Made by a program: the position numbers and the translations under genes. Under the pieces are notes generated by a model. That model ran no database searches. It worked only from the letters and a program-made list of their open reading frames with translations, and had not been told where the DNA came from. Below, piece after piece: positions 1 through 47,547 of a DNA stretch of 64,000 nt (position 1 is the first letter of the stretch; each line of letters begins with the position of its first letter). The stretch is from a bacterium (GTDB lineage: Bacteria; Hinthialibacterota; Hinthialibacteria; Hinthialibacterales; Hinthialibacteraceae). The DNA is taken from positions 1,184,001 to 1,248,000 of the forward strand of contig CAXXMV010000002.1 in assembly GCA_963662285.2 (NCBI GenBank), written 5' to 3'.

Positions 1-945
1 AAGCTCGCCAGTAGCGCAGAATGGATATCTTGTGCTTTCCAATTCTACCTGGTTTTTGTTAGAGGAAAGGACGCTGTGTCCATCAGAAGATTCAGCTTTT
101 CCAGTAGCAAGGTCAAGTGAGATGTTGGCGATCTCGCCATCCAATCCCATGGCTTCTAGAAAAGCATAAGCCATCACTAGTTGACCAGCCCATCCGGGAT
201 GAACGCCATCTTTACCTGAGATCATGTAATCGGAACCATATTCCTGTTTGGCGTTGAATCCTTCGACCAGCATTGGCAGGAATATATCGGCAAAACGTAC
301 TTTCTCTTCGAGCGCAAGACGCACATCAATATTACGCAACTCCAAAAGACTGAGATTCAGGTCTTTGATAGTACCCTGGGCCTGTTTCACCCATGAGGGC
401 ATTTTGCCGACTGTCCCGGCAGATCCCTGAATTACCCGCACGTTATTTTCTTTGAACATGCGTATGATGGCTTGGGAACTTTCGCGGTATTTGTCGCCGA
501 ACTCGGTTTTATATGGTTGATAGCGGTGGTCGTTCATGCCATAGCACGTTGTAGCGATGGTTGGATCGAAGCGCAAGCAGTCATTCTTCATTCGATTCAA
601 GAAGCCCGGCGCCTGCTCTCCGCTCCAGCCGAATTGGCGGACGGTGATTTCTAATTGAGGTACGCAAACCGTCAGATAGGTTTCCATGATGCGGGAATAC
701 ATTTTTTGCTCGGTTATGGAGTCGCCGCAAATAGCCAGACGGTCTCTCTTTTTTAGAAATAAACCTTCGGTTTGAGGCGCTTTGATCGGTTTGAACGCGG
801 CGAAGTATGGATCAGACGGCAGCGGCGCCAGTTCCTCGGCGAATAAAGGCGCGATCGGGACTATCACCAACAATAACAATAATGTTATTATGGTTTTTTG
901 GATGATAGAAAACGTGAACATTTTTTTCTGGTTCATTGCGGACAT
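1..945 (-). CDS. Secreted SGNH/GDSL hydrolase (3' end outside window)
   Basis: Not in ORF track. Manual minus-strand translation from ATG 945 (AGGAG RBS at 956-960): signal peptide, block I ICGDSITEQKMY, block V DGVHPGWAGQ near 185-210; frame stays open to the window edge. Confidence 0.85.
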   Translation of the reverse strand, partial: MSAMNQKKMFTFSIIQKTIITLLLLLVIVPIAPLFAEELAPLPSDPYFAAFKPIKAPQTEGLFLKKRDRLAICGDSITEQKMYSRIMETYLTVCVPQLEITVRQFGWSGEQAPGFLNRMKNDCLRFDPTIATTCYGMNDHRYQPYKTEFGDKYRESSQAIIRMFKENNVRVIQGSAGTVGKMPSWVKQAQGTIKDLNLSLLELRNIDVRLALEEKVRFADIFLPMLVEGFNAKQEYGSDYMISGKDGVHPGWAGQLVMAYAFLEAMGLDGEIANISLDLATGKAESSDGHSVLSSNKNQVELESTRYPFCATGEL

Positions 946-5381: not shown

Positions 5382-5409
5382 TTGACATTTTACTTGCTTT
5401 AGTTAAGAT
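5382..5409 (+). promoter_or_regulatory. Putative sigma70 promoter of the giant protease gene
   Basis: TTGACA (5382), 16 nt, TAAGAT (5404) in an AT-rich intergenic region. Confidence 0.5.
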
Positions 5410-5523
5410 ATTTATAGGATTAGTATCAAATAGATTCATGAAAAACATTTATTGATTTGTTATTGGCCACAGGGTGGATCGTAAGGGTTCGATAAAATCC
5501 ACATTAATTTGAGGTTGGAGACT

Positions 5524-8500
5524 ATGAGACGATTATTATTACAAGCGGTAATGGGTTTATTCGTTTTGAGCGTTGGCCTCTATGCAGGCGCTCAAGAGAA
5601 GGTGTTTACTCTCGCGGGAAACGGGACCAGCGGGTTTTTGGGTGACGGAGGATCAGCGCTTCAAGCCCGGTTATCTTCCCCATACGATGTTGCGGTGAAT
5701 AGTAATGGGGACGTCTTTATTGTTGATCATGGCAATAATCGCGTTCGTATGGTTAATGCTGCGGGCATCATCACCACCATCGCAGGAAACGGCAGCGCTG
5801 GTTATAGTGGAGACGGCGGCAGCGGAACAGCCGCTGCGTTGAACCGTCCCTATGGTTTGTGCGTCGATGCGATTGGAAATGTTTATATCGCCGACACATT
5901 CAATAACGTGATCCGTAAAGTCGACTTCAATGGAATTATTACTACAGTTGTCGGCAATGGCGATCAGGGTTATGAAGGCGACGATGGGAGCGCATTAAAC
6001 GCAAAACTTAATAATCCCTTCGGCGTGTCTATTGATAATGCAGGAAATTTACTTATTTCAGATACTGGCAACCATGTAGTCCGCATGGTGAATCCCAATG
6101 GAATTATCACGACTATCGCTGGTAATGGATTAGTGGGATATACCGGTGATGGTTTGCCCGCGACGGATGCTCGTATTAGCAATCCTCTATATGTTAATGT
6201 CTCTGTAACAGGTGAAATTTATATTGCCGATTCAGGCAATAATGTAATTCGTAAAGTAAACAGCCAGGGATTGATCTTCACCGTTGCTGGTGATGGTGAA
6301 GAAGGTTATGCGGGTGATGACGGTCAGGCGTCAAACGCCAAACTGACTAATCCCAGTGGAATAGCCTTTGATGGCGATGGAGATTTGCTTATCGCCGATA
6401 CAGGAAACCATGTGCTGCGTAAAGTTGATTCCAATGGAATCATTACTACTATTGCCGGCGCAGGAATTGCCGGATATGCAGGAGATGGCGGAATCCCAAG
6501 CAACGCAAAATTTGATAATCCAGTGCGCGTCATTATTGATGCCAACGGTCAAATATTTATTGCGGATATGAAAAATAATCGCGTCCGCTATATCACTCCA
6601 ACCGCTCCTTTGTCAGTCGAAGCAGGAGATGACCGGGTTGCTTTTGTTAATGATGCCACGCAACTTGACGCCAGCGCCTCAGGTGGAAGCGGCAACTATA
6701 GTTACTCGTGGAGTATTCTTTCCGGACCGAATGCCAGTTTGGCTCAGTTATCATCTTCAGTTGATGAAGATCCTATTATTACGCCGACTCATGCCGGCGT
6801 CTATGTGCTTCAAGTAGAAGTTAGCGACGGTGTTAATTCGCCGTTTGTCGATACTACAACTGTCCTGGTATTCAATCCCATTCCAGTGAATACCGTTATT
6901 ATTAATGATACAATTTCAACCCTGGATGACCTAAGTAATAGTATCGATTATGATGATGCGGATGAGCGCGCCTTGGTTATCCGCTGGAATCTGGATACAA
7001 CTCAGATTAAGCCTGAAGACGTCAGCGACATCAGCGTCTTCGTCAGCGTGGATGGCGGCGGCTATGTATTATTGGGCAGCGCGGGCAACGGCGTCTCTTC
7101 GTATATGAAATGGGAAGAGTCTTCCTCTGATCTGATTGAGCCGGAATTCCAAAGCGGTCCTCAGTTCGACAAGAGTTATAAGTTCCGCTTGTTCGTTTCG
7201 ACGCTGAGCGGTAATCCGCAGTTCTTCGGCCCGTTTGACACCGCTGGCGCCGTATCATTCAAGGAAGGCCTTGATCCAGAACCGACGCCAACCTTTACTC
7301 CGGTTCCGGTAGTTCCCACATCAACGCCGACTGTGGTAGAAGAACCTACTTCAACTCCAACTCCAGGGGAAGAGCCGACATTGACTCCTACTCCGGAAGA
7401 AGAACCTACAGCAACTCCGGTTTTGCCGACTCCAACTCCAGAAGAAGAGCCGACTGCAACTGCAACTCCGGATGTACAACCAACATCAACTCCTACTCCG
7501 GAAGAGGAACCGACGGCAACAGCTACCCCAGATGGAGAAGCCACGCCAACTGCTACTCCAGATGTGGAACCAACTGCTACGGCGACCCCGGATAGTGAAG
7601 CAACGCCAACAGCTACTCCGGAAGAAGAAGCGACTGCGACTCCGACTCCCGAAGAGCCGACTGCAACGCCGACCGCAACGCCGACCTGGACGCCGACCAA
7701 TACTCCAACGCCGACTGAAACCCCCGTACCGGGTGATCCTGAAATTCGGGTTGATCCGGAAACGCTGGAATTTACCCGCGAGGTAAACTCTTCAGTTAAT
7801 GTTAAGGAACAGGCTTCATTGCAGCAATCCGCGCCTCAGTCGCCCAATTTTGATTGGCAAATATTATTGAAGAGCGGCGTTGTTAATCCTGATTCGTTCT
7901 CTTCAAAATCCATTAGTCCATTCTCAACTCCACAGAAAAGCGGAACTGTTCAGCACATGCTGTTGCAGTTTAACAAAATTCCGTCATGGAAAGAGCAACA
8001 AGAGTTAGCGCAGCGCGGCATCCTCTTGCTGCAATATATCCCCCGTTTTGCTTATTGGGCGGCAGTGAGTTCGGATGGGTCTCCATTATCCTCTTCAGCC
8101 GTAAAGAACAAGGCTATTAGATGGATGGCGCATTCCAGTCAGATTAATCGACTGGCGCCGGAAGCTGCTGCCGGAGTATTCCCGCCCAACGCAATTATGG
8201 AAGATGGCCGCGTACAGGTCGTAGTGACTACCTTCAACGATATACAGAAGGCCGCGGCAAATAGCGCGATTGGTAAAAAAGGTGGAGAGATTATTGAGTG
8301 GATCAATGACAATTTAGTTCTGGTCGCTATCCGCTTTGAACGATTGAAAGCTCTGGCCGGACTGGATGAAGTTGAATGGGTTGAGCCGGCGCCTGCTCCT
8401 AACGAAACGGTTAATGCTACCGCATCGCAGCGGATTAATGCTACTGATTTAAGAACATTACCCTATGATGTAAATGGCAAGGGTGTCGTGGTCGGCGTAT

Positions 8501-11500
8501 GGGATGCCGGTCCGATTTATACCCATCCCGATTTCGGATCGCGTTTGACTGTAGTGGATTCAAGCAAGCCGGTTCATTATCATGCCACTCATGTCGGCGG
8601 AACCATTGGCGGCAATGCCGCTTCCGGCCAGACCAATGCGCTTGGCATGGCGCCCAGCGTCTTTATCCGTTCTTACGATTGGGACCTGGATACCTCAGAA
8701 ATGTCAAGCGGTTATGATGCCGGAATCCGGTTATCGAACCATTCTTATGGTGAAGTTGTCGGTTATTATTGGGATTCCGTTAAACAACAGATGGAATTCC
8801 TGGCTAATACATACCGGTTCGGTTTATATTCATCCGGTTCAGCTGCGTTTGATAGCGTCGTCTATGATAAAGGTTTGTTGGTCTTCAAGGCGGCAGGCAA
8901 CGACCGCGGCGAAGGCGATGGACCCTATGATACTATCCCCCCAAGAGGAGTAGCCAAGAATGTTATTACTATTGGAGCAACTGACGATAGCGACGGTATG
9001 TCTACCTTTAGCAGCTGGGGGCCGGTGGATGATGGCCGGGTTAAACCTGATCTCTGCGCCAATGGCGTTGGCCTTTATTCCACAATGCCCGACGGTAGTT
9101 TCGCAAGTTTATCAGGAACCTCAATGGCGTCTCCCAGCGCATGCGGCGCAGGCGCGCTCTTATTCCAACTTTATCAGAAAGAATTAAGTGACGAACCCGA
9201 TCCTGCTGTAATTAAAGCATTAATGATTCACGGTGCGGATGATTTAGGACGAACCGGACCGGATTATACCTACGGTTGGGGATTAATTAACGCCAAGACC
9301 AGCGCCGATTTAATTCTTGAAAGAATGTGGCGTGAGGGTTCGGTTTCAAATAGTAGTTTAGCTCCTTATACGTTATCGGTTCCCGCTGGTTCATCAGAAC
9401 TAAAAGTAACATTGGTTTGGACTGATGTTCCCGGATCGCCTTCAGCCAGCAAAGCTCTGGTAAACGATCTGGATTTGGTTTTGAAATCTCCCGATGGTAC
9501 AGTATATCGTCCCTGGGTGCTGGATAAGAATAATCCCACCAGTAATGCAACCACTGGCGTTAATACCGTTGATAATGTTGAGCAAGTGCTCATCGCCAGT
9601 CCAGCAGCTGGTAGTTGGACAATCGAAATTCAAGGGACGTCAATTCCCGGAGGCGCCAGTGATTACGCCGTCGTCACGGAAATGTTCCAAAGCGTAGACG
9701 ATTCTCAATCCTTCAGGATTTATAATGATGGCGATGGAACGCTTAATCTGGAATCAATGTCAGTTGAAGATGGCGGCTGGATCAACTTATCGCCGGATGC
9801 CCCTCTCAGCATCGCTCCAGGTCAGTTCCAGAAATTTGACGTGTGGATAAACTTCGACCAGACTCCCTATGGTGAATCTACACGGCAGATTGTAATATCG
9901 TCCAACGATGCGGATGAAAGTCCTTATGCGACTGGCGTTTATGTGACGGTTAATAATAATGCCACGCCAACGCCGACTCCTACCGTTACTCCTGAGCCTG
10001 TACCGACTGCCACGCCAACGCCCGCTCCGGCATTTCCGATCATACGGATCGAGCCGTTGACATTGAATTACGTCTATTCAGGAAATGTATCATTATTTAA
10101 CTCTGCTTTATCATTACCGGGCAGCGCTAATGCTCCTTCTGCATCAATCAACGCCGAGACGCCTGATTTTGATATTGCCGATACAACGCCCGACGGTCGC
10201 GTCCTGGTATGGATTTCATTTGAACCGGGAACCGATCTGAATGCCTTACGGCAAGAGATAGAAGCCAGAGGCGATGAGATCATAACCTTGACGCCTGAAG
10301 GGAAAATATTGATTGCCGTTCTTCCTGAGAACCTGTTATCAATGTCCGGCGTTGATGGCGTCGATGGCGTTGCGCCAGCCCTGCCCCGCACTGATTCGAT
10401 AACTGAGGCGCCTGCGCTTGATGAACCTTTCCTGGGCGCAGCTCAGCCATCCCAAGCAGATCAGGCGGTGCTTGATTCACTCTTTGAAGATGTTTCTTCG
10501 GTTCAGCCCAATGCGCTTTCCGTGATGAGGGCCAATCTTGATGGTCAAGACATGTTACCGGCTTCAGCGGATAACACTCTATCCAAATATTTCCCGCCGA
10601 TAAGAAGCCAGGGAGGTCAAGGATCATGCACAGCATGGGCGGCGTGTTATTATTACAACACCTTTACCCAGGCTTCTGATGAAGATCACGATGTTTCAAC
10701 TGGTAATAATGACTATATTTGCAGCCCGGGATTCATGTATCCGCTAGTTAACGGCGGCGGTGATAACGGCGCCTATACCTCTTATGTTGTTTCCCGCTTA
10801 AATGATATCGGCTGCGCCAGCTGGACGGAGAAACCGTATTCTGACAGAGACTATTCTTCTTGGCCCAGTGAAGCAGCCTGGCTGGATGCGTTGAAATACC
10901 GGACTAAATCCAGCAAACAAATATATGTAAACAGTTTAGAAAAAGTTCTTGAGTTGAAACAGCATCTTGCCAACGGTAAAATCGCCGCAACTCAAACTCC
11001 GGTTTATACTAACTGGTATTACTGGAAAGATAATCAGAATCGCGGCATTCAGAATGGCGTGCTCTTCTCTCACGCTGGGGAAACTTTAGTTGGTTATCAT
11101 GCCATGACAGTGGTGGGCTATGATGATGAACGAACTTTCAACACCGGTTCGGGAACCAGCAAGGGCGCCTTCCTGATCGCCAACTCATGGGGTCAGTGGG
11201 GAACCTACAATAGCCAGGGCAGCGGAAGCCGTGGGTTTATGTGGGTCTCCTATGATTACTTCATGACCGTCTTCCGCTATGCATGGTATAACGAAGACCG
11301 TGATGATTATCGTCCATCACTCTATGCCGCAACGGGAATGAATCACTCCAACCGTATTCAAGTGGCCTATAAAGGTATAGTCGGTACTCCTGAATCAAGT
11401 CAATGGACTTCGCATAGAGCGCTTGATCAGACTACTGGTAAGCCTAGCGGTAGTGCGTACTCAATGACGTCAACCAACCGGGTGATCGTCGATATGACTG

Positions 11501-13404
11501 ACGGTATTGCCCGTATTCCTGATATGAGCGATATTAATCTATTTGTTCAGTGCACCATGCCTGGCGCATCGGGGCAGCCAGTCTCCAGCGCTGAGTTCTT
11601 CCATGATTTCGATGGTGATGGCTCTTATGATAACATAGCATCAGAGAGTTCAGATATTGAAAATGCTGGAAATGATGTCTGGAATGCATCAGTGAAATTC
11701 ACCGCTTCGAACGATACATCCAGCTTCACCATCTACAATGATGGCGGGGTTGCATTGACCGTTTCAGCTGCAGCTCTTGATCAGGATGAACCTGCTCTGT
11801 CGTGGTCGCCTGAAGCTCCGTTTGATGTTGATCCCGGATCATCGCAGAAAGTATCTGTGGTAGTCGATTGGGATCAATTGGATATGGGTCAGTTTGTTAG
11901 AAGGCTGCTGGTTGAATCTAATGATGAAACCAATAGTCCATATCCGGAAGGTGTGTTTATTAGCGTTAATAAGGATGTTGAGCCGACGCCTACTCCAACC
12001 GCAACCAATACGCCGACGGCGACCAATACGCCAACTGTAACGAATACGCCGACTGCAACCAATACGCCGGGACCAGCAACGCCGACGCCTACTCCAGGTA
12101 ATGATCCGACGCCGACTCCTACATTAGCCGAGCCGACTCCGGTTCTACCTTCACCGACTCCAGGTGGCAATCCAACTGCGACTCCGACTCTCGGTGGTGA
12201 AGCAACCGCCACGCCTACTCCAGATAGTGGAGCAACCGCCACGCCTACTCCAGATAGTGGAGCAACTGCGACTCCGACTCCAGATAGTGAAGCGACTGCA
12301 ACTCCAACTCCTGGCGTTGAAGCAACTGCGACTCCGACTCCGGATGGAGAGCCAACTGCGACGCCAACTCCAGGTGAAGAAGCGACGCCGACTCCAACCA
12401 TTGAAGAAGGTACGCCTACACCAACAGCAACGGCTACAACTACGCCTACAGTGACTCCGACGCCGCAGGAAGAACCAACTGCGACGCCAACGCCTTTACC
12501 TGATGAGATTGAAGATAAATTTGATTTCGATAATGATACGCTGGAAGAACTTGGATTCAGCGTATTCCCGATTGACTCTAGTATTGAGGTTGCAACTATT
12601 CCTAAGGATAGTCAGCAGTCGGATGCAACCAACGGAACCGGTTTGAAAATCAATGCGATTCCTGGAACATTGATTACTATTAATGGTCCGGCCATTGAGG
12701 CTGTGCTTCAACCGATCAAGATTTCTCAATGGGTATCGGTTACCAGCGATGATATTCAAGTGGCGATGGGCGTTTACGCTTACCGGGATGGGCAAGCGGG
12801 CGCTGTGACATATAACTGGAATAGCGCTCCGGAAATCGCCGCCGGTAAATGGCGCCAAACCATGATCGAAATCGATGCCGGTTACAGTCGCGTTGTTCCG
12901 TTCCTGGCAATATATAATGCCGGCAGTGAGGCCAAATCAGTCTATGCTGATAATCTGGTCATTCTGCAAGGCATTGAAGGAACTCAGGGCGACGCTATTG
13001 AAATTGCTGAATGGCAGTCTAATCTCTGGTTGACTGAAGATGTCAGCGGCAACGCTTATACTGATGGCGACAAACTGGTTCTAGAGAAAGCGCCGGATAA
13101 GCAGGTCACCCGCTTTGGCGCGACTTATTCAGCCAGTGAATATCCACATTCGGTTGATGTTGAGATTGATGTTGTAAGGACGAAGGGTTCAACCAGTTCG
13201 CTGACATTATGGTTTGGCAACGGACCGAAAGCCTTCCAGAATGACATTCCGCTCTGGATGCTGAAAGAAGGCGTTCCCACTACCATTAAGATGTCGGGAA
13301 CCGTAACCCAGGATGTTGGTCCTATGATTGTGATTATACAATTGGCTGGTGATGACGATTCGCGGATCGTGGTTAACCAGGTGCGTGCGTTTAATCGAGA
13401 ATGA
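5524..13404 (+). CDS. Giant secreted multidomain protein: NHL propeller, PKD/Ig-like, PT linker, S8 subtilase, Ig-like, C1A papain-like protease, Ig-like, PT linker, C-terminal beta-sandwich region
   Basis: ATG 5524 after GGAG; signal peptide; six NHL repeats ([10 protein letters not shown]..ITTIAG); S8 triad VWDAG / HATHVGGTI / GTSMASP; papain motifs [10 protein letters not shown] / [10 protein letters not shown] / IANSWG. Confidence 0.9.
7276..7730 (+). repeat. Pro/Thr-rich low-complexity linker 1 (PTATATPxxE repeats)
   Basis: Imperfect ~30-nt coding repeats within the giant CDS. Confidence 0.85.
11980..12495 (+). repeat. Pro/Thr-rich low-complexity linker 2 ([10 protein letters not shown] repeats)
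   Basis: Near-identical 30-nt units such as gcaaccgccacgcctactccagatagtgga. Confidence 0.85.
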
Positions 13405-13437: not shown

Positions 13438-13473
13438 ATAAGGCGTGCGGGATTTGAATCCCGCACGCCTTAT
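13438..13473. terminator. Bidirectional terminator hairpin
   Basis: Perfect 17-bp inverted repeat ataaggcgtgcgggatt-tg-aatcccgcacgccttat between convergent genes. Confidence 0.85.
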
Positions 13474-13475: not shown

Positions 13476-15518
13476 TTATTTCTCGATTATTATCCGGCAT
13501 AATTTCTTTGGAGGAAGAGTGAAATAGATTCTCTCTTTGGCCCCGTTAACCGTAAACTGGCCTGAATCAAATATATCCCCTGCATCTGATTTAACTGTAT
13601 AACAATATACGCCTTCTTGCAGCATATATAGTTCAGCGCCCATTTTTCGCGGCTTGGAACCAAAGTGAAATAGTTCGGCGGCAAATTTATCTTCATTTGC
13701 ATCAGTGACCAGCGCTGCTATATCTTGGGCTGGTGTCAACCACCGAACCCGGTTAAGAGGGAAATAAAGCGCATCGCCTGGATCACCAGTGGCGGATGCG
13801 TAAAGCAGCATCGGATTAGGTGATGCAGTATCTTCGTCGTTCCAACCACTCCGCTGCAAAAATGCAGGAAACCTGATGCAGCGATCAGTGTATCGCACTT
13901 CTTCTGTGTAACCGGGGAAATTAACGCTCAATGCTTCTGCATTTTTGCGCAATGATTTGGTTAAGGATTTTCTATCCTGCGTTAAGCGGAAAGTGTAATA
14001 GGGATCATTCTCTTTTTGCAGTAATTCATCAAACTCATGGCTGCCGCTGAAAAATCTGTATTTGGTAAGAACGCTCTTAAGGTTTATGCTTCGTGCGCAC
14101 CATGCCTCAGAACCAGGTTCAGTATTGCCGGAGGGAGGATGCTTGAGATAATCAAGCCGGATGCGCGCCATAGAACGGATTGGCTCCAGATAAGATTCTG
14201 ATCCGGTCATCAGGTGGGTCTGCAATAGAGTATGAAGCATCATGGTCATTGCGCTGGGCCAATCGTATAATGTCTCCTTATAGTTTTCCGGTTTCCACCA
14301 GTCTTTTCCGGTTCCGCCGACGGTTCCCGATGGCCAATGAATGGCGCTGGGGATGACGCCCGCTGGCTTGCCCCGTTCAGCGCGGGCGGTCGCATCAACC
14401 CAACCATCCATCCATTTACTGAAGATTGTTGTCAATCGTTTATCCTGCGTTCTCTGCCAATAAAGCAATGCTGGCTGCATGGCGCGTGGATGATAGACGC
14501 TGTCACAGGCGCGTTCGGTGCGCAGGTCGTTTTTCTCAGAAGTGAAATAAGTGCTCTTGAATTGTAGAAAGCCGCGCTGGTTCACGCCAGTCCAAAGATT
14601 CTCCATCAAATCAACCAAACGTAACGCCCGGTCACGCCATAACGGGTTATCCGCATCAAGGTGCATCATGGGCGTCATTGCGTCTGACGAATCTTCGGCG
14701 GTATGTTCGACGTCAGACATGTGGGATGTATATCCGCCTTTCATGTGCGGCTGGCTCAGCAGCGATTTGGAAAAGAACTCCTGCGCTTGGGTTATTTTTG
14801 GGTCATCGAATCCGATCAGAACGGGAATCCACCAGCGCCACATTTCACAATCGTCGCCCCAGCCGCCGCCATATTCACCGTTTTCCTGTAATCGGTTGTC
14901 GATCCACCAATGAATTATCTCAGAAAGCCTTTGCAATCCTTCCCGCTGATAAACCGCCCATTCAGGAACATCCGCAGGAGAATCGTAAGCAGGGGAGGGA
15001 ATTGCTTTTCCCAGGTACATTGAAATAAGTTTGTTATCAGGGAAAACCTCATGCGCCTGGTTGAGCAACTGTCTGGCTTTTCCTGCATAACGCTGGAATT
15101 CTTCATCATGGCTCCAGACGCCGCCATACTCCAGCGATACCCAAATAATCATACGGGCGCGGTAAAACCATGTCAGCGGTTCAAATACTGAGTCCTTTGA
15201 TATATTGAAATTCCAGTCTTGGTTCTGAAGAATTTCCCGGCTGAAATACTCCAGCCGTGGGCTGTTATTCCAGCGCTCAATTTCTTTGATGAGGTTGTTT
15301 AAGTCATTTACTCGTTGAGTATTAATAGCAGGATGATCTTTGAGTTTTTTAATCAGGCGCAGTTTTTGGATTTCGTTCTCATGATTGCCAATGATTTTGA
15401 TTGAATCTTCAAGAGATAAGATTGTCTCTTGTGAAAACGCAGTGCTGCATACTAGCCCTGAGATCAATGACAATGCTAAAAGTACCGGCAATGTTTTTGA
15501 TGGTTTAAGAAAGTTCAT
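13476..15518 (-). CDS. Secreted hypothetical protein (680 aa, Trp/Asp-rich helical core)
   Basis: Long ORF with signal peptide; motifs GEYGGGWGDDCEMW and DVEHTAED; family not recognised. Confidence 0.75.
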   Translation of the reverse strand: MNFLKPSKTLPVLLALSLISGLVCSTAFSQETILSLEDSIKIIGNHENEIQKLRLIKKLKDHPAINTQRVNDLNNLIKEIERWNNSPRLEYFSREILQNQDWNFNISKDSVFEPLTWFYRARMIIWVSLEYGGVWSHDEEFQRYAGKARQLLNQAHEVFPDNKLISMYLGKAIPSPAYDSPADVPEWAVYQREGLQRLSEIIHWWIDNRLQENGEYGGGWGDDCEMWRWWIPVLIGFDDPKITQAQEFFSKSLLSQPHMKGGYTSHMSDVEHTAEDSSDAMTPMMHLDADNPLWRDRALRLVDLMENLWTGVNQRGFLQFKSTYFTSEKNDLRTERACDSVYHPRAMQPALLYWQRTQDKRLTTIFSKWMDGWVDATARAERGKPAGVIPSAIHWPSGTVGGTGKDWWKPENYKETLYDWPSAMTMMLHTLLQTHLMTGSESYLEPIRSMARIRLDYLKHPPSGNTEPGSEAWCARSINLKSVLTKYRFFSGSHEFDELLQKENDPYYTFRLTQDRKSLTKSLRKNAEALSVNFPGYTEEVRYTDRCIRFPAFLQRSGWNDEDTASPNPMLLYASATGDPGDALYFPLNRVRWLTPAQDIAALVTDANEDKFAAELFHFGSKPRKMGAELYMLQEGVYCYTVKSDAGDIFDSGQFTVNGAKERIYFTLPPKKLCRIIIEK

Positions 15519-15631: not shown

Positions 15632-18600
15632 TTAATACATCATCCATTCCTTAACGGCGGTTTCAATATTGCCGGAAAATATTAAACCTGCCTGAGAATC
15701 TGATGATGGTTTAGGTTGATATGGCGTTGTCGGAGTGAAGGGATAAACCTCTTCTGGATTGCGAATCTGTACTGAATATTCTCCATTGCCTTTTTTGGTT
15801 ATGACATGGAGATAGTATATATGATTGCTGAGCAATGGCATGAATAACCGGGCGCTGTATGAGCCATTGGTGTTAGTGCTGAACATATATTTAGTCGGAT
15901 CATCCGGTCCATAAAGAGATACGGTGGTGGATTCCGCCAGATCATCTGAATCAGTTCTAAATTCCATCATATAGGTGGAAAACATGAATGGTTGAATGAT
16001 ATACCAATTTTCTTCTATTCTTCCGGAATTAAACACACCGTATTTAATATTTCCATTTAACTCCAGGTTTTTAGTTGAGAATGTTGCTAGAGTGTTAACT
16101 GATATATTGTAACGGCCATTAGATTTTGGCGATGTGACGCGCAATAGGTATTTCTGATCTTTGGACATGATGAGCAGGATCGGATTTGATAGCGTCCCTG
16201 TCATCAAACTACGGGTTGGATCGCTTGGATTATATAGACTGAATTGGAAAAATTTGCCCGGAGCGGGAATTCCCGCAGAGGCTTCAATAATAATTGTCCC
16301 AATATCCGATTGAAGAAATTCATACCAGTGTTCATCTCCGATATCGTTAAATTGATTGGAAACCGCTGGTCCATTGACTATAAGAGGGATGATCTCTGGT
16401 TCAACGGGATTCTCTGTATATTTTTCTATACTAATCCCATAGAATCCCTCGGACAATGACGTGTATCCGTTCACGCTAACGAAATACATGCTCTCTTGAT
16501 CAAGATATTGGGTGATGGTAGAAAACGTATCTGGTCCGCTATCGTCATCTTCAGCTAAAACAAGATTTTTATTATCTGGACCATAGAGAACAATTTCCGT
16601 GTCTGGATAAATCAGATTAGAAGCAGAACTGGTTTTGATGGTATAGAATCCTGATTCTTGAACCTTAATGCTATACCAGTCGCGGGTGTGCGACATATTC
16701 AATTCACTGGTGATAGGCGGTTGATTAATTTGCAATGGCGCTAAGACCTGGTCGTTTGATATTAAAACCGGTATGTCTTTGGAGAAAACAAAACCGCTGG
16801 CGTCGGTGATAGACATAGCTAAATTATGTTCACCAGTAGGGATGTATCTTGTATCCCATTGAATACGATGATTAACGACTAATTGATCTTGTTCAAACTC
16901 TACTTCTCCTTCAATGTCTACTGTATATGGGTTGTCGAGTACTTCTCCATCCAATTCGATTACCAGTTTGCTGATTCCTACCTTGCTGGTTGCATACATA
17001 TGAACGGGAACTATACCAGCAGTTATTCTTCTTTGTGGTTGAAGAATTAATAATTTAGTATCATTGTCCATGATTTTAAGACCTGAAACGCAAAGAGTAA
17101 AATTCTGATAAGCGCCTAAATTTACCTGACCACCGATGCGGATGGTGTACGTGGCGCTTGATGGTGATGCGATGAAAACCTGTTCTACATTATCTCTATG
17201 GTTTTCGGCGTCTTGTTTTGCTGATGCGCTTGGATTGCCCGGATCCAGCGTCCAGGGGAAATACTCATTATTTTTGTCAGTGATTGAAATATCCAGATCA
17301 TTTACTAGCGTTGTTACGCTATAATCCATTCCTGAGGTTGTAATCATTCCTGGTGGATCTATCCAGGTTAAAGTAACCTTGATTGGGCCTTCCCCCGAAT
17401 ATTTACCTGGTATTTGGATTTCAGAATCGCTGTAATAATCGTTAATGATATTAGTATCATCATTACTGAAATTATGGATAAAGTCAGCTGCTGCTTTGGC
17501 GTCCACCAAACCCCAGCCGATTCGGTAATCCGGTCCCGGATCAGTGCCTCCGTCTTGCGCGGTGTGAATCAGGATGCCTTTCATAACTGCGGCGATAGGT
17601 TCCGATCCGCCGAATTGCTGCTTGTATTTTTGGGTCAGACACGCGATGGCCCCGGTCACTACCGGCGCAGCCATGGATGTCCCGCTGAGGAGCGTGGTTG
17701 CTTTATCATTCATAATTCCAAGTGACAGCAGTTTTGAACCATTGGCCACTACATCCGGTTTGATGCGCCCATCATCCGAAGGACCCCAACTCGACCAGGA
17801 CGTGATAGTTGAGAGTTCGGGAGTGGGCGGTTCGATTAATATGTCGTTTATGGCCCCGACCGCGATGACGTTTTTACCAAGCGAGATGGGATTCATAGTG
17901 TCATAACCGTCATCTTCTTCTCCATCGATGCCTCGCGGCTCATTCGAAGTTTCCGGTCCGTCGTTAAGAATGTAAGAAGCTCCTATAACGGGCGGTTGTT
18001 GATTGCGGTTATTTCCCGCTGATACCACTATCAACAAATCATGGTCGTATACTATTTTATCAAAAGCGCGGCTATGGGTGCTATACATACCAAACCAGTG
18101 CGACTGATATCCGCAGACATCTGTATTGCCATACCAGTGCCATTTATTATCTTCTTCATTAAATTCCCAACCGACTGCTGAAGAATATGAATGGTTTGAA
18201 GCCGTGATGCGATGAGCGTTAGCATCCATTTCGTAGATGTCTGCGCTGCTGTTCCAGCAGAGAAGATTAACATTAGGCGCCATGCCGCGCGTCTTTTTGC
18301 CATTAATGCCGGATGCGCCGATGGTTCCCGCAACATGAGTTGAATGATAATGAGACACCTTGGCATTATCTACTTGCTTCGCCCGGCCTATCAATTCGGT
18401 GTGCGTAGTGCGTACGCCGCTTGGATCCCAAACGCCAACCGTCACCCCGCTTCCACCAAGATTGTATCCGGTTGAGCCGTCCGGTTGGATTTCATCGATG
18501 TTGGAGGTGTCCTGCGCGTTGATATTACAGGGCACTATTGGAGGTTCGATCTCTGTGATCAGCATGACGCAATCTTCTTCAGCCAAAGCGTCGATGCTGT

Positions 18601-19183
18601 TACGGGGTATAGCAACGCTTGCCATGGTTTGATGATAATCAAAACGGGTTTGAGTCGCGCATAGTATCGCTCCATGATTGAGCAGCGCTTGTTTGGCTTG
18701 GTTGAACATCGTTCCCGGGTGAAACATAACGAGAACTTTTTTTAGACTGATGTCCATTATTTGTACTGCGCTTTTCGGAGTTGCTTCGAGCGTCTTCCGG
18801 ACAGCGAAACCGATCTTGGCCTTAGCGGGAAGATGGGCTGCGCCGACATCGGGCTTGTTGTTCTGCAACCATTTGTATGCATCTGTAGTTGCCGTCACAA
18901 TGTAAGCGTTTGGGTGTATGTACTGTTCAAAATGGATATTGTTAGAGATATATATATCCCGCTCTGCTGGTGATAGAGGCGCATTGAATTGAAGAATGAT
19001 TCTTGTAGATTTATTATCAGATGGAAAGGTAAATGTCCCTGTATTTTGTAACTGAATCTTTACGCCATTTAGATCAACTGACGCCGACTTTGATAGGCAT
19101 TCAATTGCAGAGAAGAGGACGGATAATACCAAGAAGTAACACAACGACTGACGAATCATTCCACTCATTAATAATTCTCCCAT
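15632..19183 (-). CDS. Secreted S8 subtilase with propeptide, Ig-like and three PPC-like domains
   Basis: VGVWDPSG, HSTHVAGTI, SAGN, GPSDDGRIKPD, GTSMAAP; DWYSI..EDDDSG PPC-like repeats; true start probably ATG 19168. Confidence 0.9.
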   Translation of the reverse strand: MGELLMSGMIRQSLCYFLVLSVLFSAIECLSKSASVDLNGVKIQLQNTGTFTFPSDNKSTRIILQFNAPLSPAERDIYISNNIHFEQYIHPNAYIVTATTDAYKWLQNNKPDVGAAHLPAKAKIGFAVRKTLEATPKSAVQIMDISLKKVLVMFHPGTMFNQAKQALLNHGAILCATQTRFDYHQTMASVAIPRNSIDALAEEDCVMLITEIEPPIVPCNINAQDTSNIDEIQPDGSTGYNLGGSGVTVGVWDPSGVRTTHTELIGRAKQVDNAKVSHYHSTHVAGTIGASGINGKKTRGMAPNVNLLCWNSSADIYEMDANAHRITASNHSYSSAVGWEFNEEDNKWHWYGNTDVCGYQSHWFGMYSTHSRAFDKIVYDHDLLIVVSAGNNRNQQPPVIGASYILNDGPETSNEPRGIDGEEDDGYDTMNPISLGKNVIAVGAINDILIEPPTPELSTITSWSSWGPSDDGRIKPDVVANGSKLLSLGIMNDKATTLLSGTSMAAPVVTGAIACLTQKYKQQFGGSEPIAAVMKGILIHTAQDGGTDPGPDYRIGWGLVDAKAAADFIHNFSNDDTNIINDYYSDSEIQIPGKYSGEGPIKVTLTWIDPPGMITTSGMDYSVTTLVNDLDISITDKNNEYFPWTLDPGNPSASAKQDAENHRDNVEQVFIASPSSATYTIRIGGQVNLGAYQNFTLCVSGLKIMDNDTKLLILQPQRRITAGIVPVHMYATSKVGISKLVIELDGEVLDNPYTVDIEGEVEFEQDQLVVNHRIQWDTRYIPTGEHNLAMSITDASGFVFSKDIPVLISNDQVLAPLQINQPPITSELNMSHTRDWYSIKVQESGFYTIKTSSASNLIYPDTEIVLYGPDNKNLVLAEDDDSGPDTFSTITQYLDQESMYFVSVNGYTSLSEGFYGISIEKYTENPVEPEIIPLIVNGPAVSNQFNDIGDEHWYEFLQSDIGTIIIEASAGIPAPGKFFQFSLYNPSDPTRSLMTGTLSNPILLIMSKDQKYLLRVTSPKSNGRYNISVNTLATFSTKNLELNGNIKYGVFNSGRIEENWYIIQPFMFSTYMMEFRTDSDDLAESTTVSLYGPDDPTKYMFSTNTNGSYSARLFMPLLSNHIYYLHVITKKGNGEYSVQIRNPEEVYPFTPTTPYQPKPSSDSQAGLIFSGNIETAVKEWMMY

Positions 19184-22392: not shown

Positions 22393-23899
22393 TGTACAGA
22401 CCGGGTAGATGGGTAACACATGTTCGGGGACATGGGTTACAGTTTTTTATCAAAACCGGGATTTATCCCAGGTTATTGTTTGAGTTTTTTTTTAGGCATC
22501 TAGAGATGCTCAGGATAATTGGTTGGCTTAGAGGGAGGAGGTGAATATTTCACCTCCTGCATTATCCCTCGCACCTCGGATCGGCTATCCCTGGCGGGTT
22601 GCACTCCTGCAGCGCCCGCTTCCGTTTCGCCCAACCAATTTCTATTGTGACGCCTTTTTCTGGATTGCCAAGTTATCTTCTTTGATTTCATTCAAACGCA
22701 GATCGAGCATCTTGATTTTTTGTCGGCAAAAATATACGTCCATCATCCCATCGGTCATAGCGGGTTTCAAGGCAACCGGGCATCCTACCAGGGCGCGGCT
22801 CACCCGGTAATCTTCACCACGGTACGCCACCCGACCTCCTTGTTGCACCTTCCTGATAATGCTGCCCGGCGCGTACTCGATATCCGGCAAACTTCCCGGA
22901 TAAACAAAAGGACTGGACGTATAATGGTTAGCCGGGACATCCATATCCAGGGCTTCGTGAGGACGCTCAAAATTGTATTCATAACGCCACTCATCAAACC
23001 GCCTTTGGCAATATTCCAAATCCACAAACGATTCCCTTATCAGCAATTCTTGCTTAAAGGTCCGGTGAAATCGCTCGACCTTGCCTTGGGTTTGCGGATG
23101 GTAGGGGCGACCGTGATACACGCGAATACCCAATCGTATCAGCCATATTGTCAATCTGGTGTATTCGCAGGTTTTGCATCCTCCCCACGGACTTCCGTTA
23201 TCCATCAACATCGCCCGAGGCATACCATACATCCTGAACACGCTTTCCAGGGAGTCTTGCACGGTTTCCCTTTGCTGATTGGCGCACGAAAATAATCCGG
23301 GAACAAAGCGCGTGCAATCATCCAGAATGCTGAGCGGATAACAGCGTGCTTTGAGCGTGGGAAAATCTCCTTTGAAATCCATTTGCCACAATTCGTTGGG
23401 CGTATCTTTTTCAAAACGCTTATAGGCTTTGTGCTTGTGACTTTCCTTTTCATCCAGCAATCCCAGTCGGCGTAACACGGCAGTAATAGTGCTGGCGCTA
23501 GGAACATTTTCGTATCCCAATTGAATCAGACGAGAGCGAATTTTGCGTCCTCCCCATCCTTTTTCGCGATTTTCTGTAATGGCTTGCTCGATAGACTTAT
23601 CTGTTTGATGAGGGCAAGTATTGGGTTTTTTGGAACGGTCTTGGAGATTTTCGCCTCCTCCTTCTTTGTACCGTTTGATCCATTTGTAACCCGTCTTACG
23701 GCTGATATCAAACCGTTTACATAATTGGCTGATGTTGCTTTCTTCTTGCTGGCTCAACAATACGAATTCTTTTCTCAGAGACATAAGGTCCACCTCGTTC
23801 CAGGGCATATTCTTCGCCTCCTTTCAAGGCTAGAATACACTCAGGGAATGTGTTACCTATGTCCCCGAACACCTGTTACCCATGTCCCAGGCCTTTACA
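22393..23899 (-). mobile_element. IS481-family insertion sequence (1507 bp)
   Basis: TGT...ACA ends, ~50-bp imperfect terminal inverted repeats with internal GGACATGGGTAACA-type repeats, 5-bp target duplication CCAAG (22388-22392 / 23900-23904). Confidence 0.92.
22642..23808 (-). CDS. IS481-family DDE transposase
   Basis: MPW start, HTH ISRKTGYKW, LWQMDFKG, LDDCTRF, MDNGSPW, HPQTQGKVERFHRT, YNFERPHEAL. Confidence 0.95.
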   Translation of the reverse strand: MPWNEVDLMSLRKEFVLLSQQEESNISQLCKRFDISRKTGYKWIKRYKEGGGENLQDRSKKPNTCPHQTDKSIEQAITENREKGWGGRKIRSRLIQLGYENVPSASTITAVLRRLGLLDEKESHKHKAYKRFEKDTPNELWQMDFKGDFPTLKARCYPLSILDDCTRFVPGLFSCANQQRETVQDSLESVFRMYGMPRAMLMDNGSPWGGCKTCEYTRLTIWLIRLGIRVYHGRPYHPQTQGKVERFHRTFKQELLIRESFVDLEYCQRRFDEWRYEYNFERPHEALDMDVPANHYTSSPFVYPGSLPDIEYAPGSIIRKVQQGGRVAYRGEDYRVSRALVGCPVALKPAMTDGMMDVYFCRQKIKMLDLRLNEIKEDNLAIQKKASQ

Positions 23900-38915: not shown

Positions 38916-40007
38916 ATGAAGAATCGCGCAAGAATAATATTCATGGCAGTTTTAATTTTCTTATTATGCGGCATGGGTTTATTATCGATTCTTTTTCCAA
39001 ATGAAGAATTGCCGCCTCTACCAACTCGACAGCCGGATTTTGAAATTAAACTTATGAATCCTTCATGCGTCGCTTTCTCTCCTGATGGGAAGCAGATTGC
39101 TATCGGGCATATGGATGGTTGGGATCTGTTTGATTTTAATACTAGAGAGATGGTTGATAAGCATAGATGGAAAGAATCTTATGTTTCTCAAATATCCTTC
39201 TCGCCGGATGGAAGGAGATTGCTAACTTCCAGGGACGACGAAAATATAATTCTGTGGGATATCGAAACAAAGAAAGAACTATTCAGATTAGATAAAATAG
39301 GCTTTTGCACTTCAATAGGTTTTTCTTTGGATGGAAGCAAAATAGTTGCGGCGGTTGGCCAGCGTGTACCTACCCCTGGATATGCTGCGATTTGGGATAT
39401 CAAGACCGGGAAATCGGAAAGTGTTTTCCGTACATCATGTAACCGGGCAGTTTACGCCCCGGATCAAAAATCGGTGGTTTTAACCCATGTTAACCAGGTC
39501 GAAAGGTGGGGTATTGACATAGAAGATAAAGTTAAAGATATCGCCGTATTCAAACAGGGTATAGTTGCGTCCGGTTTTTCTGTTGATGGCAAGCAGATGT
39601 TGGCAGCATTATTTAATGCTCCGGCAAAACTGATTGATATTGAATCCGGAAGTATCTTAAAGGAATTCAAGAATACCAAGGGTTGGTTGAAATTCGCTGG
39701 TTTATCCCAAAATAGCTCCTTTGCCCTGGTAGGTGATTCAGGCGGGATTCCTATGAAGGCTTCAAAAGCCGATATCTTGGACAAGATACCTTTTTCCGAG
39801 GTAGTATACCCAAGAAGATGTAAAGGCGGCCTCTATGTTTATTCGACTGCTTCTGGAGAAGGAATAGTAAGATTGGCGGGATATGATATGTGGTATAGTT
39901 TTGCTCTCTCCGCTGATCGATCAATGGCGGCTGGGGTCACGCAAGGCTCCGTCTGCTTTTGGGATATCAGCAATATTGTTGACGATACGGTTGCTGATTC
40001 GGAATAG
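38916..40007 (+). CDS. Membrane-anchored WD40-repeat protein
   Basis: N-terminal TM helix; AFSPDG and LWDI repeats. Confidence 0.85.
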   Translation: MKNRARIIFMAVLIFLLCGMGLLSILFPNEELPPLPTRQPDFEIKLMNPSCVAFSPDGKQIAIGHMDGWDLFDFNTREMVDKHRWKESYVSQISFSPDGRRLLTSRDDENIILWDIETKKELFRLDKIGFCTSIGFSLDGSKIVAAVGQRVPTPGYAAIWDIKTGKSESVFRTSCNRAVYAPDQKSVVLTHVNQVERWGIDIEDKVKDIAVFKQGIVASGFSVDGKQMLAALFNAPAKLIDIESGSILKEFKNTKGWLKFAGLSQNSSFALVGDSGGIPMKASKADILDKIPFSEVVYPRRCKGGLYVYSTASGEGIVRLAGYDMWYSFALSADRSMAAGVTQGSVCFWDISNIVDDTVADSE

Positions 40008-40072
40008 CGATTTGCACTATATATATACGTATGATTGGAATGTTTGGTTCATCATAGGAAGGAAGCGCATCC

Positions 40073-41338
40073 ATGAGAAAACGCATATTATTTACATTTC
40101 TGGCAGTGATAGTATTTCAAGGCTGTTTTGTATTAGTATTAATAATTCTTATCCCAGATAAAATAATCGCGCCTTGGCCCTCTCTGTCGCCGGATTTCGA
40201 GATAAAGCAATTGAATGCTTCGTGCTTGGTATTTTCTCCTAAAGGGAAACACATTGCTATAGCGCACATGGATGGTTGGCATCTGGTTGATTATCAAACG
40301 AGAGAGATTGTTTTTAAGCATAAATGGAAGAAGAAGATTTATATTTATCAAATTTGTTTCTCTCCCGATGGAAAACAAATTGCTATCGGGCATTCCGATG
40401 GTTGGGATGTGGTTGATTGTCAAACGCGGGAGATAGTTGTTAAGTATAGAGGGAAGGAAGATTATATTTCTCAAATGTGTTTCTCGCCGGATGGAAAGAA
40501 ACTACTGACGACTAACAAATACAATAATATCATCGTGTGGGATATTGAATCAAAGCAAGAACTATTCAGGATGGATGATATCGAATTCTGTTGTTCAAGC
40601 GGCTTTTCTTCAGATGGAACAAAAATAATTGCAGCGGTTGGAGGCTATTTTTCAAAAACTGGATATGGCGGGATTTGGGATATAGAGACAGGCGAACCGG
40701 AAAGAATTTTTGATACGAGATGCACCCAGGTAGATTACGCCCCGGATGAGAAAACGGTGATTTTAGCGAATTATAAGCAGATAGAAAGATGGGATGTTGA
40801 AATGGGAAAGAAGATAAACAATATAGCGGAGCTTAGGGGGGCGCTGCATGATATTAACTTTACTATTGATGGCAAGCAGATGATGGTTGGATTCTCGCAA
40901 CTTGGTAATGCAATACTAATTGATATTGAATCAGGGAGAATCTTGAAGGAATTTGAGATTCCCAGAGGAGATATAGTATTCTTAGGTTTATTAGAAAATG
41001 GCGCCTTTGCCCTGATAGGTAATACAGGTGTATCTCCGAAGAAGGATTCAGTTAAAAATCTATTAGATAAACTGCCTTTTTCTGATGTATTCACTCCAGC
41101 ATTTGATAAAGGTGGTCTCTCTGTTTATTCGACTTCTACAGGAGAAATAGTGGTTAGAATGGGTGGATACAATCATTGGCGTAGTTTCGCGCTTTCCCCG
41201 GATCGCTCAATTGCGGCTGGGATTGCTAAAGATTCCGTCTGCTTTTGGGATATCAGCAATATTTCCGGCGATGAGGTTTTTGATTTAGACTATATATATG
41301 TAGCCTGTTATAACTTTTTGAATGGCTGCCTTCATTAG
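40073..41338 (+). CDS. Membrane-anchored WD40-repeat protein, tandem paralog
   Basis: Colinear with the previous ORF, with one extra duplicated blade. Confidence 0.85.
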   Translation: MRKRILFTFLAVIVFQGCFVLVLIILIPDKIIAPWPSLSPDFEIKQLNASCLVFSPKGKHIAIAHMDGWHLVDYQTREIVFKHKWKKKIYIYQICFSPDGKQIAIGHSDGWDVVDCQTREIVVKYRGKEDYISQMCFSPDGKKLLTTNKYNNIIVWDIESKQELFRMDDIEFCCSSGFSSDGTKIIAAVGGYFSKTGYGGIWDIETGEPERIFDTRCTQVDYAPDEKTVILANYKQIERWDVEMGKKINNIAELRGALHDINFTIDGKQMMVGFSQLGNAILIDIESGRILKEFEIPRGDIVFLGLLENGAFALIGNTGVSPKKDSVKNLLDKLPFSDVFTPAFDKGGLSVYSTSTGEIVVRMGGYNHWRSFALSPDRSIAAGIAKDSVCFWDISNISGDEVFDLDYIYVACYNFLNGCLH

Positions 41339-42368: not shown

Positions 42369-43936
<1,568 letters not shown>

Positions 43937-44162
43937 AGTATTATGCCTCGATGGGGCGTTTAGCACCCTGAGATGGAAAAGCGTCGCTTCCTAGATGAAG
44001 CGGCCGAAGCTCAGATGCTTGACACTTAGTCTCATTCTTGGTAACTCCAAGGTAGAACTTATACAGTAACACCTGTTCGATTGTTATAGATCAAGGAAGA
44101 GCTCCTGCGCGCACTAGCAAATGTGAGTGCGCGTAAGTTTTGTCCGGATAATCAGTTCCGAG

Positions 44163-44238
44163 GGGCCTGTAGCTCAGCTGCGGTTAGAGCGTTCGCCTGA
44201 TAAGCGAAAGGTCACAGGTTCAACTCCTGTCAGGCCCA
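44163..44238 (+). tRNA. tRNA-Ile(GAT), CCA not encoded
   Basis: GGGCCTG/CAGGCCC acceptor stem, ttcgc-ctGATaa-gcgaa, GGTTCAACTCC. Confidence 0.97.
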
Positions 44239-44258
44239 ATCTGACAGTAGACTGAAAA

Positions 44259-44498: not shown

Positions 44499-47460
<2,962 letters not shown>

Positions 47461-47547
47461 ATGTGTCTTTGATGCGGCAACATCCGACAACCGATACAAC
47501 ACTTGATATATAAACCAATTTAATCAACTCGAAACTACTTTTTAGTT

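Follow-up and report, generated by a model that had tools for sequence, protein, structure and literature searches.

The window analyzed in this work is a stretch of 64,000 nucleotides (nt) from a bacterial genome of the Hinthialibacteraceae (assembly GCA_963662285.2, contig CAXXMV010000002.1, positions 1,184,001 to 1,248,000), and our subject is a single gene on its forward strand that places a subtilisin-type peptidase of family S8 and a papain-type peptidase of family C1A on the same predicted polypeptide. The open reading frame (ORF) extends from 5509 to 13404 and encodes 2631 amino acids (aa) when counted from its first TTG. Starting at the ATG of position 5524, which has a GGAG-type ribosome-binding site 6 to 9 nt upstream, it encodes 2626 aa; the size of the precursor is about 275 kDa. 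The other ORFs of at least 100 aa within this interval are five short frames of 104 to 174 aa. The gene looks monocistronic, since a 430-bp spacer with a promoter-like site precedes it and a terminator-like hairpin follows it. The promoter consensus has 9 sites versus 14.2 expected in shuffled sequences, so that the promoter-like site at 5382..5409 is a weak one.

As listed in Table 1, the N-terminal half of the chain consists of a signal peptide, an NHL propeller, a PKD domain, a domain of unassigned family (residues 456 to 600, for which no usable Pfam match was obtained), and a Pro/Thr linker, followed by strand A of a first immunoglobulin-like (Ig) domain, a prodomain, an S8 subtilase resembling KP-43 and SubHal, a P-domain, and strands B to G of that Ig domain. 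The C-terminal half continues with a second Pro/Thr linker, strand A of a second Ig domain, a prodomain, a cleft-blocking segment, a xylellain-like C1A peptidase, a beta-sandwich, strands B to G of the second Ig domain, a third Pro/Thr linker, and a tandem of domains that resemble carbohydrate-binding modules (CBMs). An earlier reading of the letters alone (the sequence-only reading) had claimed a polypeptide of about 2630 aa with seven catalytic codons, an NHL propeller ahead of both proteases, and two long Pro/Thr stretches flanking them, and these claims were borne out: the ATG it had chosen gives 2626 aa, all seven codons are in frame where it had placed them and lie in canonical motifs, TEN_NHL and NHL match residues 30 to 370, and the Pro/Thr stretches cover residues 593 to 743 and 2157 to 2335, with a short third one (1485 to 1510) separating the proteases. 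It had also named a domain scan as a check, and Pfam reports NHL, PKD, Peptidase_S8, and Peptidase_C1 in one chain.

Table 1. Features of the dual-protease gene and its flanks (positions in the window)
Feature	Position	Strand	Basis or remarks
Promoter-like site (TTGACA, 16 nt, TAAGAT)	5382..5409	+	Consensus match, in 430-bp AT-rich intergenic region
Start codon and Sec-type signal peptide	5524..5598	+	Judged by eye: basic n-region, hydrophobic core, AGA-Q
NHL-repeat beta-propeller	5599..6618	+	TEN_NHL 147.4 bits in 5 stretches, NHL 72 bits; residues 30-370
PKD-like Ig domain	6619..6873	+	K319L-like_PKD 28.3 bits, cut-off 27; residues 372-454
Conserved domain of unassigned family	6874..7284	+	58% and 46% identity in orthologues
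Pro/Thr/Glu-rich linker 1	7285..7737	+	Degenerate 30-nt repeats, repeat identity 67-80%
Detached strand A of Ig domain 1 (putative)	7738..7788	+	Motif ~240 aa ahead of S8 domain; weak trans-prediction support
Subtilase N-terminal prodomain region, about two alpha/beta units	7789..8463	+	Weak CspB_prodomain match
S8 subtilase catalytic domain	8464..9303	+	D999, H1025, N1131, S1205
P-domain/PPC-like beta-barrel after subtilase	9304..9660	+	P_proprotein 21.4 bits, cut-off 21
Ig domain 1, strands B-G, ASH/HYDIN/PapD-like	9661..9960	+	HYDIN_VesB_CFA65-like_Ig from profile position 14
Short Pro/Thr linker 2 (S8-to-C1 junction)	9961..10038	+	78 nt
Detached strand A hairpin of Ig domain 2 (putative)	10039..10089	+	Model residues 8-19, pLDDT ~78-80
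C1 prodomain	10183..10578	+	Beta-alpha-beta-beta-alpha-beta unit 1565-1623, then cleft-blocking-type segment ~1635-1684
C1A papain-like catalytic domain	10579..11304	+	Q1701, C1707, H1864, N1892, W1894
Beta-sandwich after C1 domain	11305..11643	+	Strands at model 434-540
Ig domain 2, strands B-G	11644..11976	+	Pfam, similarity to Ig domain 1, AF2 model, structural alignment
Pro/Thr-rich linker 3	11977..12513	+	Degenerate 18/30-nt repeats
Tandem CBM-like jelly-roll domains	12514..13401	+	AF2 pLDDT 86.1, pTM 0.81
Terminator-like hairpin	13438..13473	+	16-bp stem, T-rich tail; 34 nt past stop codon

Peptidase_S8 (PF00082) matches the subtilase module with 133.4 bits (cut-off 21.8) at residues 990 to 1258, covering profile positions 1 to 288 of 288. 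The triad follows in the order Asp (codon at 8503, in VWDAG), His (8581, in HATHVGG), and Ser (9121, in GTSMASP), and N1131, the oxyanion Asn, sits in AAGND. NCBIfam gives a partial CspBA-type match to the same domain. By Pfam and by its triad, the module qualifies as an intact member of peptidase family S8 for which activity is predicted. The closest solved sequences are SubHal (5fax) and KP-43 (1wmd); both matches (phmmer E ~1e-37) span the catalytic domain and the beta-barrel behind it, for which PPC scored 22.1 bits, below its cut-off of 25.9. The module thus shares with KP-43/SubHal-type subtilases a D-H-S domain followed by a C-terminal barrel. These relatives, however, are free enzymes of about 430 residues, whereas the present domain is internal to a chain of about 2600 residues, with a split Ig domain around it and a long double prodomain of about 225 residues ahead of it, the second half of which matches CspB_prodomain weakly (E 0.11).

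The papain-like module is much less obvious at the sequence level. Peptidase_C1 (PF00112) yields a marginal match of 26.8 bits (cut-off 20.7) at residues 1683 to 1898, the orthologues described below score 22.6 to 30.9 bits, and a phmmer comparison of the module with the sequences of solved structures in the PDB gave nothing better than E 0.037 to 0.095. The codons for Gln (10609), Cys (10627, in QGSCTAWA), His (11098), and Asn (11182, in ANSWGQWG) occur in papain order. In an AlphaFold2 (AF2) model of the C1 fragment, built from 46 sequences with a predicted local distance difference test (pLDDT) of 90.0 and a predicted template modeling (TM) score (pTM) of 0.83, the corresponding residues Q197, C203, H360, and N388 are conserved in at least 90% of the 46 family members. 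The modeled fold aligned with that of xylellain (3ois) over 239 residues (VIA Z 26.9; root mean square deviation [rmsd], 2.5 A), Foldseek gave E 4.4e-13 with TM(target) 0.72, and Lpg2622 (6a0n, Z 18.9) and Cwp84 (4ci7, Z 19.5) were found as further structural matches. As judged from the model, the papain fold of the C1 domain is confirmed despite the marginal sequence match. The module resembles these bacterial C1A peptidases in its papain fold with Q/C/H/N, and the match to Cwp84, made of a protease and a lectin-like domain, extends over model residues 138 to 495 and includes the beta domain that follows. It differs from them in a barely detectable sequence likeness, in a prodomain of the subtilase-like alpha/beta type, and in the Ig-nested setting of the cassette.

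The region ahead of the C1 domain was found to have two parts. Its second part, the segment at about 1635 to 1684, aligns with the cleft-blocking end of cathepsin propeptides, and procathepsin zymogens matched the C1 model with Z of 21 to 25.5 in alignments starting at model residue 131. Because these alignments start ahead of the mature domain, the C1 model resembles a zymogen with a cleft-blocking prosegment. A helical I29-type propeptide is typical of eukaryotic cathepsin L-like C1A enzymes and optional for C1. Pfam gave no match to it at E up to 5 and nothing usable for the C1 prodomain as a whole, and only the cleft-crossing end aligns with cathepsin propeptides. The first part, a beta-alpha-beta-beta-alpha-beta unit (model residues 61 to 119), matched instead the second half of the subtilase prodomain of the same protein (BLASTP, 33% identity over 63 residues, E 1e-5). 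When a profile of 64 S8 prodomains from proteins devoid of C1 was aligned by hhalign with an independent profile of 38 C1 prodomains from proteins devoid of S8, the two matched over 77 columns with a probability of 94.3% (E 1e-7). These comparisons indicated that the C1 prodomain is homologous to the subtilase prodomain, unlike that of the cathepsin I29 type, insofar as profiles can tell.

Orthologues were sought in the window's own assembly and in 60 relatives, a set of 61 genomes of which 26 belong to the order, 9 to the same class, and 26 are more distant. The S8-to-C1 segment was present at its full 925 residues and free of stops in the window's own genome (G000; 7.29 Mb, 8 contigs, 92.5% complete) and in G020, G021, and G022, and G017 matched residues 309 to 925, at which point its contig ends. 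The carriers therefore amount to 5 of the 26 genomes of the order, spread over three families, and the segment was found in none of the 9 same-class and 26 more distant genomes. Pfam shows NHL, S8, and C1 in each of the three complete orthologous frames, and PKD passes the gathering threshold of 27 bits in two; in G022 it scores 21.6 bits and stays under that value. Two protein records are colinear with the window protein over the full length, P0002 (2596 aa, 60% identical) and P0003 (2831 aa, on an 852-kb contig, 51% identical). In all three sequences D999, H1025, N1131, S1205, Q1701, C1707, H1864, N1892, and W1894 are invariant, and conservation is highest in the two catalytic domains (identity to the two orthologues of 78% and 62% for S8 and 73% and 73% for C1, versus 56% and 49% for the NHL propeller). 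Both catalytic sets are thus intact and invariant among orthologues and lie in the most conserved parts of the protein.

These results also bear on whether the gene is an artefact, either misassembled at its Pro/Thr repeats or carrying one module that is a decaying pseudo-enzyme. The linkers are indeed repetitive, and the short-word contigs assembled from sequencing runs X1 and X2 break inside linker 3, at 12201 to 12260, and nowhere else. However, the S8-to-C1 junction is a 78-nt linker in which no tandem repeat was detected, and single contigs of X1 and X2 span 7000 to 12230 with 0 differences and bridge it; run X3 contributed only three 151-nt pieces. The same domain order recurs outside the window's own assembly in three genomes of the same order, in a fourth where it is cut by a contig end, and in one protein from a separate metagenome contig. 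With its catalytic residues all invariant and its catalytic domains the best-conserved parts, an artefact is very improbable, and a chimeric join, which the sequence-only reading had named among the outcomes that would refute it, is contradicted by the colinear orthologues and the bridging contigs. A natural split into an S8-only protein and a C1-only ORF was considered for G011 and dismissed: the C1 ORF (L017:3314-7279, minus strand), which holds the C1 cassette and the common C terminus, begins in a run of N and may, for that reason, be a fragment of a fused gene. As a separate observation, the protease gene is followed in G022, G020, and G011 by a conserved protein of about 1000 aa (L014:15440-18520, L015:15154-18165, and L018:1910-4915, minus strand) with a 'DEWDP...HGPHTL' N terminus and CBM-like C-terminal repeats, which is not found at that position in the window.

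Both proteases appear to be inserted into Ig domains. The Ig segments behind the two cassettes are 32% identical to one another (E 4e-15) and match HYDIN_VesB_CFA65-like_Ig (27.0 bits for the whole protein, cut-off 25.5) only from profile position 14 or 8 onwards. PapD, ASH, and MSP structures aligned with the C1 model at Z of 10.6 to 12.6 and an rmsd of about 2 to 3 A, with only 92 to 110 aligned residues in a range of 1..651, that is, the hairpin at 8 to 19 plus residues 547 to 651. Since the aligned range joins these two parts, the hairpin seems to be strand A of Ig domain 2, the other strands of which follow some 530 residues later. A strand-A motif, [ILV]x[ILV]x[PS]xx[ILV]x[FY], with a background of 0.04 hits per 260 residues, was then searched in 150 representatives of the C1 family. 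An Ig domain lies within 260 residues past the C1 domain in 23 of them; the motif precedes the prodomain in 10 of these 23 but in only 1 of the 127 representatives without the Ig. Among the other 13 Ig-bearing representatives, the 11 that were inspected plus P0214 each have a contiguous strand A of their own right before strand B. On the subtilase side, the motif lies about 240 residues ahead of the S8 catalytic domain in 8 of 9 related loci, two of which are the same gene.

The contact between Ig domain 1 (strands B to G) and its strand-A peptide was also predicted in trans. The complex scored 0.56 versus 0.02 for the best of three controls, its runs share at least 83% of contacts, and the pLDDT of the partner is at least 58. 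Of 157 solved complexes, 116 reached the mark used for this prediction, as did 2 of 215 mismatched pairs; only 18 of the 157, but both passing mismatches, did so with scores of 0.60 or less. The prediction counts as weak support. Judging from alignments and models, each protease cassette apparently sits between strands A and B of an ASH/PapD-like Ig domain. The arrangement is reminiscent of donor-strand complementation in chaperone-usher pili, in that the Ig domains match PapD-like chaperones and pilins (Z ~11) and obtain one strand from a distant part of the chain. Unlike in the pili, the strand here belongs to the same polypeptide before any cleavage, and its persistence thereafter is hypothetical.

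Each protease has its own preceding prodomain, so that maturation should cut the chain, and with the cassettes placed in the loops between strands A and B of the Ig domains, cleavage of the prodomains would break the backbone. After such a cut, strand A would remain hydrogen-bonded in the Ig sheet, and the pieces could stay together non-covalently. We tentatively propose, as a possibility that we would not call probable, that the Ig domains act as sockets, that the severed chain stays assembled by strand complementation, and that the C1 unit is the founding member of a large clade in which a subtilase-type prodomain serves for folding and inhibition. The same internal prodomains could also be taken as a sign of a polyprotein, in which autoprocessing after export, at the prodomains, at the Pro/Thr linkers, or at both, would free an NHL fragment, a subtilase, and a papain-like enzyme with a CBM tail; these would act independently of one another, and the fusion would only ensure co-expression and co-secretion. 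Many proteins have the C1 cassette on its own after a signal peptide (matches begin at about query residue 57 and protein residues of about 20 to 50), and cleavage of this kind is proposed for giant S8 plus C39 proteins in a preprint (bioRxiv 10.1101/2023.11.21.568195). On the other hand, Ig domains split around the cassettes look like a device that holds pieces together, and the domain order has been kept colinear over three families; we regard a polyprotein as unlikely.

The C-terminal region may serve in binding. Its model (residues 2336 to 2631) shows two beta-sandwiches, for which Foldseek retrieved the Bacteroides surface glycan-binding protein SGBP-B (7kwb, E 3.7e-10), a tandem CBM22 (4xup, E 8.6e-9), and other CBM-like tandems, and protein-language Atlas features placed it with CBM_4_9 clusters (score 0.95). 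Glycan binding by this tandem is a reasonable inference from the models. The same C terminus is common to S8-only relatives; many relatives in the same bacterial family have NHL, S8, Ig, and a C terminus of the identical type and no C1 unit. That the C terminus is a sorting signal common in its own genome was considered and rejected, as only three weak paralogous matches were found (E 1.8e-4 to 7e-4). The sequence-only reading had pictured a tethered multi-enzyme arm akin to a single-chain cellulosome. A binding arm is consistent with the NHL propeller and with the CBM-like C terminus, which that reading had overlooked, but the cellulosome is a loose comparison, with neither cohesin nor dockerin among the Pfam matches of the protein; P0142, a distant C1 relative, has a dockerin. 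The sequence-only reading had likewise passed over the prodomain ahead of each protease, the apparent nesting of the cassettes in Ig domains, and the presence of the combination in public data.

Another reading is that the two enzymes do not serve nutrition, and that one protease mainly processes the other in an activation cascade or matures the cell's own envelope proteins. The C1 prodomain, given its homology to subtilase prodomains, could be a substrate or a ligand of the adjacent S8 site. Moreover, Cwp84, found among the structural matches with its protease and lectin-like domain, is a C1 peptidase that matures the S-layer protein of Clostridioides difficile. Several observations argue against this reading: the same prodomain occurs in C1-only proteins, with 147 of the 150 representatives having no S8; Pfam reported no S-layer or anchor domain in the protein; and the neighboring genes are for glycosidases and esterases rather than for envelope assembly; they encode a GH106 rhamnosidase, a GH109-like enzyme, a second S8 protease, a ceramidase-like protein, GDSL esterases, and an IS481-type transposase. 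A cascade or surface maturase is therefore improbable.

The gene is real, and we consider it probable that it is monocistronic and encodes a secreted, glycan-attached modular protease precursor whose two zymogens, once activated, degrade protein side by side. In this scheme, Sec would export the protein, and the CBM-like tandem, perhaps together with the NHL propeller, would attach it to a glycan-rich particulate substrate or to its own envelope. Each zymogen cassette would then mature through cleavage of its prodomain, and the two endopeptidases, one of the serine and one of the cysteine type, would degrade proteins jointly, complementing each other in specificity and inhibitor sensitivity, and thereby feed a polymer-degrading lifestyle. 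A number of results weigh against this scheme. X1 and X2 stem from one sample, probably the source of the assembly, hence they are not independent of it, and their contigs break in linker 3. The Pfam score for C1 is only 6 bits above the cut-off, and a family-level PF00112 scan of the whole genome missed the window copy. A profile of 13 C1 prodomains found nothing better in PDB sequences than E 0.35 to 0.5, for 'Open reading frame 2' (2mk4/3wqb), the external chaperone of an Aeromonas subtilase; the match is not significant and no more than a lead. The contact between strand A and the Ig domains derives from aligned ranges, with the trans prediction graded as weak support. Residues 2336 to 2631 have no Pfam match, so that their CBM assignment is one of fold likeness, and the Foldseek TM score for them is only about 0.33, a low value that is expected for two mobile domains. 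Finally, no cell anchor or sorting signal was recognized in the protein.

The C1 unit has a wide distribution of its own. A full-library search with residues 1505 to 2160 returned 4617 clusters at E of 1e-3 or less, 304 of them at 1e-30 or less. Records came from Sumerlaeota, Auribacterota, Verrucomicrobiota, Armatimonadota, Planctomycetota, Elusimicrobiota, Omnitrophota, and Thermoplasmatota, among others, where taxonomy and genome loci were obtained with one peptide pattern for the best 80 of 209 confirmed stretches. By sequence, the C1 unit belongs to a large, mostly unnamed clade of bacterial and archaeal C1 peptidases that is hardly recognized by the current family model. As a side observation, the window's own genome carries two more canonical C1 domains of 106 bits each (C8:7284-7886, minus strand, and C1:494688-495413, plus strand), in frames of 1418 and 754 aa.

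Fusions of this C1 cassette to a subtilase are few. With an iterated S8 profile, which was used because a single-sequence phmmer search had missed the S8 domain of P0054, a subtilase was detected in 3 of the 150 best representatives of the clade: the orthologue P0003, a fragment of the same kind (P0122), and P0054, in which the order is reversed (C1 at 153 to 375, S8 at 1108 to 1361). Among the 80 genome loci, S8 shares a frame with the C1 cassette in two, the orthologue in G020 and a 2180-aa frame of a Thermoplasmata archaeon (L097:4515-11054, plus strand) with S8 (289 to 596), six PKD domains, C1 (1166 to 1365), and GEVED, an independent fusion. Of the 81 representatives that are 850 aa or longer, 30 were scanned with Pfam, which revealed a clostripain C11 domain ahead of the same C1 cassette in P0039. 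Precomputed Pfam lists also show S8 together with C25 in P0016 and P0022, with M23 in addition in P0016. In a quick tree of 55 S8 regions (5 identical duplicate rows dropped; a careful search is unfinished), the fused forms fall within one well-supported NHL-S8 clade and need 3 state changes, which may be compatible with a single origin of the fused forms inside that clade. With 3 of 150 representatives, the reversed P0054, and the archaeal frame, the S8-C1 fusion is, as far as these sequences tell, rare yet arose at least three times, once in an archaeon. No published S8-C1 protein was found in the literature searched, which excluded subscription journals and the architecture tables of MEROPS and InterPro. 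As to the suspicion that the architecture might already be common and described, it is thus rare and no description was found, but public data already contain it, without annotation, in no fewer than three unrelated contexts.

Several known systems invite comparison. Multi-catalytic single-chain glycoside hydrolases, with their Pro/Thr linkers and CBMs, are a closer analogy than the cellulosome. The present protein likewise carries several catalytic and binding modules on Pro/Thr linkers in one secreted chain, but its predicted substrates are proteins, it shows no cohesin or dockerin in Pfam, and activation of its zymogens is expected to sever it. CspBA of Clostridioides difficile consists of two S8 domains, one of them inactive, and it resembles the protein described here, as do giant S8/C39 proteins of Omnitrophota, in having more than one peptidase domain per precursor. 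The Omnitrophota proteins are membrane-associated giants, and neither they nor CspBA join S8 with C1A or nest a protease in a split Ig domain. S8 and C39 domains in one protein are discussed in the giant-gene preprint (bioRxiv 10.1101/2023.11.21.568195).

The host is most likely an uncultured, sediment-type heterotroph from the same GTDB family as the genome G002, within the phylum described as OLB16/Hinthialibacterota: G002 matches the record P0011 with 100% identity over 2278 residues, and one source assigns P0011 to Candidatus Hinthialibacter antarcticus. The available portion of the article on Ca. Hinthialibacter antarcticus describes an inferred polysaccharide degrader with abundant proteases and does not mention a dual protease (PMC9324843). 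Just downstream of the gene, on the other strand, lies a second secreted-type S8 subtilase of 1183 aa with a weak PPC match (15632-19183), adjoined by a 680-aa ORF without a Pfam match (13476-15518, minus strand). The IS481-family transposase (22642-23808, minus strand; rve integrase core and helix-turn-helix domains) is 9 kb from the protease gene. Farther along the window are two adjacent WD40 propeller genes (38916-41338), a complete rRNA operon 29 kb downstream (42369-47664, plus strand; 16S, two spacer tRNAs, 23S, and 5S), a 936-aa ORF without a Pfam match at E of 1e-5 or less (48163-50973, minus strand), and five consecutive paralogous genes for PQQ_2/BamB-like beta-propellers (53811-61082, plus strand).

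Taken together, a serine and a cysteine endopeptidase have been kept on one chain through the divergence of three bacterial families, and the locus marks a large C1 clade hardly recognized by the current family model. The new points are a papain-like enzyme with a predicted subtilase-like prodomain and the apparent placement of protease cassettes within Ig domains. If true, Ig nesting would mean that activation cleavage need not dismantle the assembly and that zymogens of unrelated clans can be strung on one chain. If the clasp works, it would be a natural design principle for multi-enzyme display and would explain internal zymogens in very long secreted proteins. In sediments and sludge, protein turnover is driven by proteases secreted by uncultured bacteria that degrade polymers, and such proteases also supply enzymes for industry.

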